Shown here piece after piece: positions 42,857 to 44,337 of a stretch of 64,000 nt of DNA. The notes under the pieces are model-generated. The model was not told the origin of the DNA, ran no database searches, and saw only the letters and a list, made by a program, of their open reading frames with translations. This DNA comes from a virus: IMG/VR virus record IMGVR_UViG_3300009163_000019; one strand, written 5' to 3'. Both the position numbers and the translations under genes were made by a program. The stretch's first letter is position 1. Every line of letters starts with the position of its first letter.

Positions 42857-43252
42857 GGGGATAACCGGTATCGATCTGAATGATGAGATAATACCACATG
42901 CAGGCGTTTGGTAGAGTCGCCTTAGAAAACTGCAAACAATAACTGACGAAATGTCAACAATGACCTTCGAAGACTTAATGTCTTTCGTAGGCGCTGATTA
43001 CGCTCTAGCAGCCTAGTCCGCATCGGGTGGTAGAGAACCTAGGAACAGAACACAACAGCGAGTCATACGCTAAAGAGATGGCATCCGGACGCATATTGCG
43101 AGCCGTAGTTTTCTTGATAGTCATAAAATCAAGTGGTGGAAACGACCATAAAGGTCAGCCCTTACTGATCAAAAGCAATTTAGATCTAAGCATGTGAGAC
43201 GTTGGTGTTATTATCACTTTTAGAGACGTGGGTTCGAATCCCACTATCTCCA
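42857..43252 (+). ncRNA. ssrA: tmRNA
   Basis: Acceptor stem GGGGATA/TATCTCC-A with G3.U70; T arm GTGGG-TTCGAAT-CCCAC; long helix 2; tag ORF 42945-43016 ending YALAA; CCA not encoded. Confidence 0.95.
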
Positions 43253-43321
43253 CTTAAAATATATATTTTTATTATCTTAAATTTATTTGTACATTTAATT
43301 AATAATCAAAACAAATAAAAA

Positions 43322-43512: not shown

Positions 43513-43607
43513 AACACAGAAACCATAATATAGCGTTAAAATAAGGAGGCGTGGTTGCCGAGTCGCAAGCTATGCGAGCGTATGAGGTTCGATTCCTCTC
43601 TGTGTTC
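43513..43607 (+). ncRNA. tRNA-like RNA (intact acceptor and T arm, non-canonical middle)
   Basis: AACACAGA/TCTGTGTT stem; GAGG-TTCGATT-CCTC T arm; internal AACCAT/GTGGTT and TCGCA/TGCGA helices. Confidence 0.55.
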
Positions 43608-43625: not shown

Positions 43626-43856
43626 ATGATTTGGTACATTTATATTATTAGTATTACATATTGTATTTGGAAAATGTCAAAAGGCTATAAAAGAACTTTT
43701 GGCGAAGGGAATCCTATAGGGCCAACCCCAGGACTAGAAACACTTTTTATAATTCCTTTTGCTCCAGTTTTAGCAGTCCTTGATATTAGTTTAACTTGGA
43801 TTCGTAGATTTCATGAAGTAGAAGAATATAAAATAAGAAACAATAAGATATTTTAA
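43626..43856 (+). CDS. Small membrane protein
   Basis: Two hydrophobic segments. Confidence 0.5.
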   Translation: MIWYIYIISITYCIWKMSKGYKRTFGEGNPIGPTPGLETLFIIPFAPVLAVLDISLTWIRRFHEVEEYKIRNNKIF

Positions 43857-43859
43857 TAT

Positions 43860-44014
43860 TGTCGGGTGGTGAAAAGCGTACGCACGGTAGACACACCCTC
43901 TCGTCTCGAGGGCGCTGAATTTGAAATAGGTAATTGGATATGGGTTGACCACAAAGCCGGCTATTTTGTCCACTACCGAATCACAGCGTGAAGGTTCAAA
44001 TCCTTCCTCGACAG
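43860..44014 (+). tRNA. Aberrant ~155-nt tRNA-like RNA with GUC at the anticodon position and ~75-nt variable arm
   Basis: TGTCGGG/CTCGACA acceptor; GTG/CAC D stem with GGTAGA; CCCTC-TCGTCTC-GAGGG; GCTG...CAGC long arm; GAAGG-TTCAAAT-CCTTC T arm. Confidence 0.75.
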
Positions 44015-44016
44015 CA

Positions 44017-44337
44017 AGTTATCGTTCTTTGACATATAAGGAGAAATAAAATATGGAAACACTATCATTCGTTTTAGGGATAGCATTCATTGTGGTTATA
44101 GCTTTAGCTATAGTTGCTACTTATGCTTTCGTTAAAGTAATAAAAGTACAAAAAGAAATCAATGATCTAGACAGAAGATTTGCAGACATCTATCAGTGTA
44201 TTGCTGAAGAGAATGCTCAGATTAATCGGAGAGTCGATGATTTTGAAAAAGAGATATTCTCTCAGTTAGATTCAAGATTAGATAAGTTAGAAAATAAATT
44301 AATAATTAAAAAATAAATAAGTTAAAGAACGATAACT
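44017..44337. repeat. Inverted repeat pair flanking ORF 44053..44316
   Basis: AGTTATCGTTCTTTGAC (44017-44033) pairs with GTTAAAGAACGATAACT (44321-44337): 17 bp, one G.U. Confidence 0.8.
44053..44316 (+). CDS. Membrane-anchored coiled-coil protein
   Basis: N-terminal TM helix, coiled coil; AAGGAG RBS upstream. Confidence 0.6.
   Translation: METLSFVLGIAFIVVIALAIVATYAFVKVIKVQKEINDLDRRFADIYQCIAEENAQINRRVDDFEKEIFSQLDSRLDKLENKLIIKK

Follow-up and report, generated by a model that had tools for sequence, protein, structure and literature searches.

A giant-armed tRNA-like RNA of Bacteroidota and their phages, a candidate non-decoding carrier in aspartate and asparagine metabolism

The bacterial aspartyl-tRNA synthetase (AspRS) recognizes an identity set in transfer RNA (tRNA) that comprises G73, G10, G34, U35, C36, and C38 (PMC9976931). 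A first base pair U1-A72 promotes the amidation of tRNA-bound aspartate by the bacterial amidotransferase GatCAB, which the G1-C72 pair of tRNA-Asp prevents (PMC1635274, PMC2811023). The tRNA-Asn, which is charged by a non-discriminating AspRS, likewise possesses U1-A72, and its T-stem pairs G49-C65 and A51-U63 make elongation factor Tu (EF-Tu) reject Asp-tRNA-Asn; the T stem of tRNA-Asp has G49-U65 and G51-C63 instead, and any aspartylated tRNA into which both of the tRNA-Asn pairs are transplanted binds EF-Tu with an affinity about tenfold lower (PMC1904265). Here, a tRNA-like RNA gene with a giant variable arm is described from a 64,000-nucleotide stretch of viral DNA (“the window”) in the IMG/VR record IMGVR_UViG_3300009163_000019, an uncultured virus of 136 kb with a G+C content of ~31%. 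This giant-armed RNA with the anticodon-like triplet GUC is a real, conserved RNA family that acts as RNA on the given strand, and the copy in the window is a phage-borne version of an RNA native to Bacteroidota chromosomes. From its conserved positions and genomic associations, it is probable that the RNA is charged with aspartate, does not decode, and is tied to aspartate or asparagine metabolism. The specific function proposed below, a carrier on which GatCAB would amidate aspartate for asparagine synthesis and which phages have captured, is held with a probability of about 0.45.

The anatomy of the window copy is as follows, with coordinates counted from the first letter of the window:

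43860..44014, + strand: giant-armed tRNA-like RNA gene, 155 nt from position 1 to the discriminator G73; 185 bits with the covariance model R1, over positions 1-155 of 155
43860-43866 (U1 G2 U3 C4 G5 G6 G7) with 44007-44013, + strand: acceptor stem TGTCGGG/CTCGACA, 7 bp with one G-U; 7/7 pairs covary
43869..43894, + strand: D arm, a 3-bp stem GTG (43869-43871)/CAC (43892-43894) and a 20-nt loop
43876..43883, + strand: perfect palindrome GCGTACGC of 8 nt inserted in the D loop, a phage-subclade feature
43896..43912, + strand: anticodon-like arm CCCTC/TCGTCTC/GAGGG, 5 bp and a 7-nt loop at 43901-43907
43913..43988, + strand: 75-nt variable arm, with a base stem, a 4-nt bulge, a 3-bp stem, an internal loop, two distal stems, and an elaborated tip
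43942..43952, + strand: invariant tip motif GGGTTGACCAC, without variation in 11 copies collected without the motif as query
43955..43962, + strand: apical perfect palindrome AGCCGGCT at the tip of the variable arm
43990..44006, + strand: T arm GAAGG / TTCAAAT / CCTTC, with G49-C65 and A51-U63
44014..44015, + strand: discriminator G73 and C74; CCA is not encoded and the next bases are CAA

The place of G18 and G19 in the D loop is taken by the GG at 43886-43887, and the anticodon-like loop UCGUCUC has C33 at 43902, G34 U35 C36 at 43903-43905, U37 at 43906, and C38 at 43907. In the variable arm, the conserved internal loop is GAAAUAG / CGAAU. Folding of the single sequence returns exactly this cloverleaf, with a stability that is not significant alone (z = -1.3). 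An earlier note on this DNA, made from the letters alone, had described the four stems, the D-loop palindrome, the loop with C33 and U37, the long interrupted helix, G73, and the missing CCA, all of which hold at these coordinates.

Relatives of the RNA were collected in several ways. Short exact patterns from the 5′ part and the anticodon hairpin recovered 13 viral contigs, and a pattern of the arm tip and T arm only, blind to the anticodon loop, returned many more; the covariance model R1, built from 11 copies, then selected 61 distinct phage copies of 147–176 nt. One genome per prokaryotic species was also scanned, first with the tip-plus-T-arm pattern and then with the covariance model, which gave 65 matches (64 full-length copies and one cut-off fragment), bringing the family that aligns to R1 to at least 61 phage and 64 bacterial copies. 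The tip motif served as a query in these later searches, and its invariance is therefore counted only in the 11 copies found independently of it. Paired cells make up 95.8% of the alignment of the 61 phage copies, and changes on both sides occur in 30 of 35 pairs, a level of covariation reached by none of 500 shuffles, and ~47% of cells are paired in slid controls. Helices 3 to 7 of the variable arm all covary, around invariant positions G58, A59, A69, A120, A121, and C125, so that the whole of the long arm is real. The D stem occurs as A10-U25 and C11-G24 variants that are compensated in relatives, and covariation at the fourth pair of the anticodon arm (UA 25, AU 20, UG 8, CG 6) fixes its 5-bp/7-nt register. 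As G-U pairs are frequent, selection acts on the RNA of this strand. The earlier note had argued from the intact stems against simple decay, and the compensatory changes across relatives confirm an intact, selected tRNA-like RNA. The loop N-N-G-U-C-U-C, U1-A72, G2-C71, G73, and C74 that mark the family are all present in the window copy.

The alignment also disposed of several other folds. The register given by RNAalifold (6 bp and a triloop, plus GGUG/CACC) is ruled out by the fourth-pair covariation of the 5-bp register, and also because, where the insert is lacking, the D stem pairs with the CAC beside position 26. A pseudoknot joining GUGGU (positions 7–11) to ACCAC in the tip was rejected since it is the D stem, and not the invariant tip, that compensates for changes at positions 10 and 11, and a GUCU-AGAC pairing in the D arm was rejected for a middle base that varies without compensation. 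Checked by eye, the internal loops of the arm do not fit the hammerhead or kink-turn consensus; a loop-E-like motif with a bulged A is possible there.

The RNA had no match in Rfam, either at the gathering threshold or at E<=10, and ARAGORN at default settings did not call it, reporting only a transfer-messenger RNA (tmRNA) at 42857-43255. With C33 and U37, the window copy fails the rule for a canonical tRNA loop (U33 and purine 37 in a loop of 7 nt). The RNA itself is not a tmRNA (RF00023), as only 42857-43255 matches that family, and the RNA has an anticodon-like arm and no tag frame. With the locus and its surrounding 12 kb as queries, neither blastn nor megablast gave a match among GenBank phages, an exact 24-mer of the T arm had no match in viral contigs, and no published description of the family was found in literature searches. 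An ordinary tRNA that has been misread is a hardly credible explanation in either of its two forms. When introns are permitted, ARAGORN does return a tRNA-Asp(gtc), its 75-nt intron following position 31, but relatives do not support such an intron-bearing tRNA: the GGTAG/CTACC stem that it needs is missing in three of them (L002, L005, L008) and the same bases covary within the long arm, so the intron reading is wrong. A serine-accepting class II tRNA, the identity favored in the earlier note on the strength of the long arm and G73, does share G73, G2-C71, and a large variable region with the RNA; it is contradicted by A72 in place of C72, by U-A in place of C11-G24, and by R4-Y69, which occurs in only about half of the copies. 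With homologues that carry compensatory changes, no Rfam match, and no splicing reading left standing, the outcomes on these points that the note had named as refutations did not arise.

Conservation is concentrated at positions that matter for aspartate identity. The GUC at 34–36 is present in 61/61 phage copies, including those collected blind to the loop, and is kept in all aligned full-length copies except one degenerate bacterial copy (L186). U37 occurs in 59/61 and C38 in 55/61 phage copies, and both occur in every intact host copy, while positions 32 and 33 are variable (position 33 in phage copies: C 40, U 19, A 2; U33 in 62/64 host copies, with the loops UUGUCUC or CUGUCUC). G73 is found in 125/125 copies, as is a C immediately 3′ of it, although CCA is not encoded. 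G10 is present, or is replaced by a compensated A10-U25 in the remaining copies, and the 11–24 pair is U11-A24 in 54/61 phage copies; position 4 is a purine in 35/61. The strong AspRS determinants G73, G34, U35, C36, and C38, together with G10, are thus all in the window copy and conserved in the family. The pattern in the loop, in which 34, 35, 36, and 38 are fixed and 32 and 33 are free, matches what AspRS reads, and from it we infer charging with aspartate. One element of tRNA-Asp is absent: G1-C72, which is strictly conserved in bacterial tRNA-Asp and helps to place the 3′ end, is U1-A72 in the RNA.

The acceptor end and T stem resemble those of tRNA-Asn. U1-A72 is present in 124/125 copies and G2-C71 in 121/125, giving the RNA the first pair that GatCAB requires, and the two T-stem pairs are widely kept (G49-C65 in 53/61 phage and 60/64 bacterial copies; A51-U63 in 48/61 and 59/64). 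The conservation of U1-A72, G49-C65, and A51-U63 thus makes the RNA an aspartate-type anticodon loop joined to the acceptor end and T stem of a tRNA-Asn. Outside of the mature RNA, position -2 is nearly always A and position -1 mostly a pyrimidine able to pair with G73 (window 43858-43859); along with C74, these bases hint at special processing of the 5′ or 3′ end.

The loop had been judged in the earlier note as not built for decoding, a judgment supported here; U37 prevails across the family and C33 in most phage copies. A working decoder of GAC and GAU, either as an extra tRNA-Asp or as an Asp-to-Asn recoder with its giant arm tolerated as the body of tmRNA is, seems distinctly unlikely. 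Features that a decoder would have are a complete cloverleaf, an intact T loop and G18 G19, an invariant GUC, and the U33 of hosts, and tmRNA demonstrates that a large domain leaving at the variable-arm position can pass through the ribosome. Against it stand U37, where nearly all tRNAs have a purine, C33 in 40/61 phage copies, and T-stem pairs that weaken EF-Tu binding of the Asp-charged form. Several normal tRNA-Asp genes in the hosts, and control by an amino-acid regulator (see below), which is unusual for an elongator tRNA, also argue against decoding. The ordinary tRNA-Asp genes of Flammeovirga pacifica and of a Saprospiraceae chromosome have G1-C72, G49-U65, and G51-C63, and because hosts keep these canonical genes, the giant RNA is an extra molecule and not the decoder.

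Chromosomal copies were found in the Saprospiraceae, Chitinophagaceae, Cytophagaceae, Roseivirgaceae, and Flammeovirga, frequently arranged in tandem with as many as five in a row. The RNA is present in ~10% of an even sample of 151 Bacteroidota genomes and in 27 of 71 genomes sampled from one order. Arm lengths are mixed within the same host arrays, with short (112–116 nt), medium, and long (190–204 nt) forms, and some host paralogues, of the short form, lack the tip motif GGGUUGACCAC, which makes the motif dispensable for the core role. Motifs of the Bacteroidota promoter type, judged by eye only, lie 35–45 nt 5′ of position 1 in host loci. In one host, a class IIb synthetase gene, probably lysS, has the RNA 250 nt downstream on the same strand (G073:C6:179691-181445).

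Clustering of the neighbors at 46 bacterial loci identified one recurrent gene, a regulator of the Lrp/AsnC family; apart from it, no conserved protein partner lies beside the bacterial copies, the other neighbors being housekeeping or variable. This AsnC orthologue is divergent to the 5′ end of the RNA at a distance of 80–310 bp in 17 of the 46 loci, with protein identity down to ~50%. Its best family match is NF008384 AsnC (158–169 bits, with Lrp-type and other models at <=90 bits) and its best structure match is E. coli AsnC (2CG4). With a threshold of 54% identity or more, the orthologue was detected in 16 genomes of the 151-genome sample, and the RNA occurs in 15 of those 16 and in none of the other 135 (Fisher P = 9e-20, not corrected for phylogeny); in two of the 15 RNA-positive genomes, the RNA was seen only as a fragment cut by the contig end right beside the regulator. 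The orthologue adjoins the RNA in 10 of the 15, and each of five further genomes with unlinked RNA arrays has one AsnC orthologue (5/5). Where regulator and RNA are unlinked, the neighbors of the regulator vary from genome to genome.

Within the one order, GatB is present in each of the 27 RNA-positive genomes, and none of the 12 GatB-negative genomes carries the RNA (71 genomes; one-sided P ~0.002); at the level of the phylum GatB does not discriminate, being present in 126/151 genomes. The RNA-positive hosts have GlnRS, AsnRS, and GatB together, and a gene set of GlnRS, AsnRS, and GatCAB is the setting where GatCAB serves asparagine biosynthesis (PMC4206432). The absence of asnA is uninformative, as the gene is rare, occurring in 4/151 genomes of the phylum and in 0/10 of the RNA-positive genomes searched.

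As a separate observation, M28 or M20 metallopeptidase genes (L171:2723-3682, L216:5373-6818, L256:2041-3456) adjoin the RNA array in Flammeovirga and three other loci, and in one genome (G069) such a gene is divergent to the unlinked AsnC orthologue. A metallopeptidase near the RNA or the regulator could be imagined as a hydrolase that frees the amino acid; its placement is possibly due to chance.

These chromosomal associations bear on the suggestion in the earlier note that the RNA is a decoy. A bait for anticodon nucleases that cut tRNAs with GUN anticodons, or for other tRNA-targeting defenses, is now highly improbable. Phages often carry tRNAs that offset tRNA-cleaving defenses, Y33-G34-U35 is kept, and the gene shares a phage RNA cluster with a tmRNA. 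Such a role would leave the conservation of G73, U1-A72, and the T-stem pairs unaccounted for, and it offers no explanation for chromosomal arrays in which as many as five copies stand in tandem, for the link with an AsnC-type regulator, or for the confinement to GatCAB-positive genomes.

The same note had also raised a non-ribosomal aminoacyl donor, which is close to the reading best supported here. According to this proposal, AspRS would recognize G34, U35, C36, C38, and G73 and charge the RNA with aspartate, the tRNA-Asn-type T stem (G49-C65, A51-U63) would keep the Asp-RNA off EF-Tu, and U1-A72 would let the bacterial GatCAB amidate the bound aspartate to asparagine. U37, the C33 of phages, and the giant arm would bar the product from decoding, where asparagine would otherwise enter at aspartate codons. 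In hosts, the gene would be under the control of the AsnC orthologue, in the position next to asnC that asnA occupies in E. coli. In the phage, the RNA comes without the regulator and would presumably increase the supply of asparagine, or keep the pathway active, while infection lasts. Neither GatB_N (PF02934) nor the Lrp/AsnC ligand-binding domain (PF01037) has a match in the phage record, and the asparagine content of phage proteins (6.4–6.5%, compared to 5.0% in a host sample) supports the proposal weakly. More tentatively, judging from the sequences, the RNA may be a dedicated cofactor of amino-acid biosynthesis in some Bacteroidota and their phages, the phage copies of which would assemble via their self-complementary inserts.

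Several points weigh against asparagine synthesis on this RNA. GatB is also found in 32 of the 44 RNA-negative genomes of the same order, and GatCAB does not depend on the RNA; the co-occurrence counts are, moreover, uncorrected for shared ancestry. An AsnB-type synthetase is present in 4/5 RNA-positive hosts examined and AsnRS in all five, and with these a second route to asparagine is not obviously needed. An ordinary tRNA-Asn, which has U1-A72 in the host, could serve GatCAB. The bacterial GatCAB also reads the D loop, in which an extra base is an antideterminant (PMC1635274); the D loop of the RNA is large, of class II size, and may hinder GatB, and the window copy adds an 8-nt hairpin there. 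Once charged with asparagine, the RNA should bind EF-Tu as Asn-tRNA-Asn does, and its exclusion from decoding would then, by conjecture, depend solely on U37, C33, and the arm. The release of asparagine from the carrier and the role of the conserved arm and tip are left unexplained by the proposal.

Part of this evidence would serve equally for an aspartate-charged, off-ribosome RNA with another role, such as an aspartyl donor (to the envelope, a lipid, a protein, or a small molecule, the targets considered), a sponge or sensor that would tune either AspRS or GatCAB, or a signal of starvation controlled by the AsnC-type regulator. Such a role draws on the same evidence from the identity marks, the EF-Tu pairs, and the regulator; hosts already have AsnB and AsnRS, a few genomes have M28 or M20 peptidase genes next to the array or the regulator, and the conserved arm is a possible platform for protein binding. 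A role of this kind is nevertheless somewhat doubtful, as no recurrent transferase or partner gene occurs at the 46 bacterial loci and neither the near-invariant U1-A72 nor the restriction to GatB-positive genomes would be accounted for. Amidation to asparagine on a captured carrier is, in comparison, the reading that we retain.

Two features set phage copies apart from host copies, namely C33 (40/61) and the perfect palindromes at two sites in the RNA. The D-loop hairpin was inserted in one phage subclade and is absent from host copies; these and the diverged phage copies have an ordinary D arm of the tRNA-Leu type. Palindromes of >=8 nt occur in the D segments of 47% of distinct phage copies (4% in shuffles), compared to 5% in bacteria (3% in shuffles), and perfect palindromes of >=8 nt occur at the arm tip in 91% of distinct phage copies (13% in shuffles), compared to 32% in hosts. 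More than 20 different palindromes occupy the phage tip site, and it seems to be self-complementarity itself, rather than a particular sequence, that selection has kept in the phage copies; pairing between RNA copies is a possible reason. An unlikely extension is that these phage additions, together with C33, give a separate role, by self-pairing or by competing with or replacing the host RNA, with the tRNA body mainly a stable, processable scaffold. The excess of palindromes in phages over hosts at both sites, their diversity at one site, and the presence in the same phages of other scaffold RNAs of the tRNA-Leu type with unrelated middles would favor it. Yet the AspRS, GatCAB, and EF-Tu marks are still conserved in phage copies, which makes the body no mere scaffold, and the palindromes are possibly a by-product of hairpin origin in DNA.

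Two neighboring genes on the phage side recur with the RNA:

43626..43856, + strand: gene for a small two-helix membrane protein, 76 aa, ending 4 nt before the RNA
42857..43255, + strand: phage tmRNA gene in the same RNA gene cluster, called by ARAGORN and matching Rfam RF00023 at 72.3 bits

Members of the two-helix family (72–88 aa, with a charged tail and a holin-like shape) end 2–6 nt 5′ of the RNA in ~20 phage loci and are absent from bacterial RNA loci, a conserved gene order in which the membrane protein gene and the RNA are probably co-transcribed. In at least 20 phage loci, the RNA has a related tmRNA no more than a few kb away. A scan for sigma-70 promoters and terminators is uninformative where promoters are of the Bacteroidota type. 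Directly 3′ of the RNA, the stretch GTTACCGTTCTTTGACAT (window 44016-44040) is conserved in five other phage loci (L007, L009, L011, L012, L014) and possibly serves the next gene as a promoter or as a signal for processing.

Ordinary tRNA genes are absent from the phage record. A second tRNA-like element, at window 43513-43607 (+ strand), is closed by a terminal stem of 8 bp, AACACAGA/TCTGTGTT. Its T arm, GAGG-TTCGATT-CCTC, is among only three GGTTCRANTCC sites in the window, but neither a D arm nor an anticodon arm can be recognized, and the fetched phage loci contain no relative. Elsewhere in the 136-kb record there is a single further tRNA-like call, beyond the window at C1:109866-109951, which ARAGORN reports as a tRNA-??? 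with an oversized anticodon loop or as a tRNA-Leu(aag) with a 3-nt “intron”. The same phages also carry many RNAs of 93–181 nt with tRNA-Leu-type ends, AGTCAGGTGGCGGAATTGGTAGACGC ... ACAGGTTCGAATCCTGTCCTGACTA (L003:14131-14555, L038:4212-5099, L013:6000-6120, L047:1224-1512, and others), in which unrelated sequence stands in place of the anticodon and variable arms.

Whatever its mechanism, this is a large and strongly structured family (>100 copies, in Bacteroidota and in many freshwater phages) that has been missed by tRNA finders and is not in Rfam. If the proposed function is true, it would be the first tRNA-derived RNA kept solely as a biosynthetic carrier, without use in translation, and the first RNA gene in the position of asnA beside asnC. 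For phages, whose known auxiliary metabolic genes encode proteins, it would be the first gene for a metabolic RNA cofactor, and it would mean that natural recombination of the identity marks read by a synthetase, by an amidotransferase, and by EF-Tu can divert an amino acid from the ribosome.

Among described RNAs, the species 1 and species 2 RNAs of phage T4, which we take to be stable tRNA-shaped RNAs in phage tRNA clusters, are presumably comparable in kind. The anticodon-less RNAs on a tRNA-Leu scaffold in the same freshwater phages share the tRNA-Leu-type D arm with the RNA described here, but they, like presumably the T4 RNAs, are without its conserved anticodon-like loop and identity marks. 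The tmRNA is likewise tRNA-like, chargeable, often phage-borne, and equipped with a large domain at the exit of the class II variable arm, and one lies 600 nt upstream in the window; unlike the RNA, it has no anticodon arm, carries an open reading frame, receives alanine via G3-U70, and works on the ribosome with SmpB. A precedent for a tRNA withdrawn from translation is provided by the staphylococcal non-proteinogenic tRNA-Gly species, cell-wall donors with poor EF-Tu binding that are charged by the normal synthetase and barred from translation by T-stem pairs (PMC1904265), but these are normal-sized, have a usable anticodon loop and a known acceptor (FemXAB), and carry a different amino acid. 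In its body, the RNA is closest to class II tRNA-Leu (RF00005), with a 3-bp D stem, the D-loop sequence GGUGGCGAAAUUGGCAGAC in less derived copies, the same site for the variable arm, and a standard T loop; it departs from tRNA-Leu in an arm that is five to ten times as long as usual and has conserved internal loops, in GUC, G73, and U1-A72, and in the lack of any Rfam tRNA match (E<=10). In its proposed chemistry, it is closest to the tRNA-Asn of the indirect pathway (non-discriminating AspRS and GatCAB, as in Thermus, Deinococcus, Bdellovibrio, and Neisseria), with which it shares U1-A72, G73, G49-C65, and A51-U63, and in which aspartate is likewise charged and then amidated on the RNA; GatCAB, AsnRS, and GlnRS are present in the hosts. 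It differs from that tRNA in an anticodon that is GUC (Asp) and not GUU, such that a discriminating AspRS could charge it, and in U37, a class II tRNA-Leu-like body, a variable arm of 35–120 nt, an AsnC-type regulator, and carriage by phages, a combination with which decoding is not expected.

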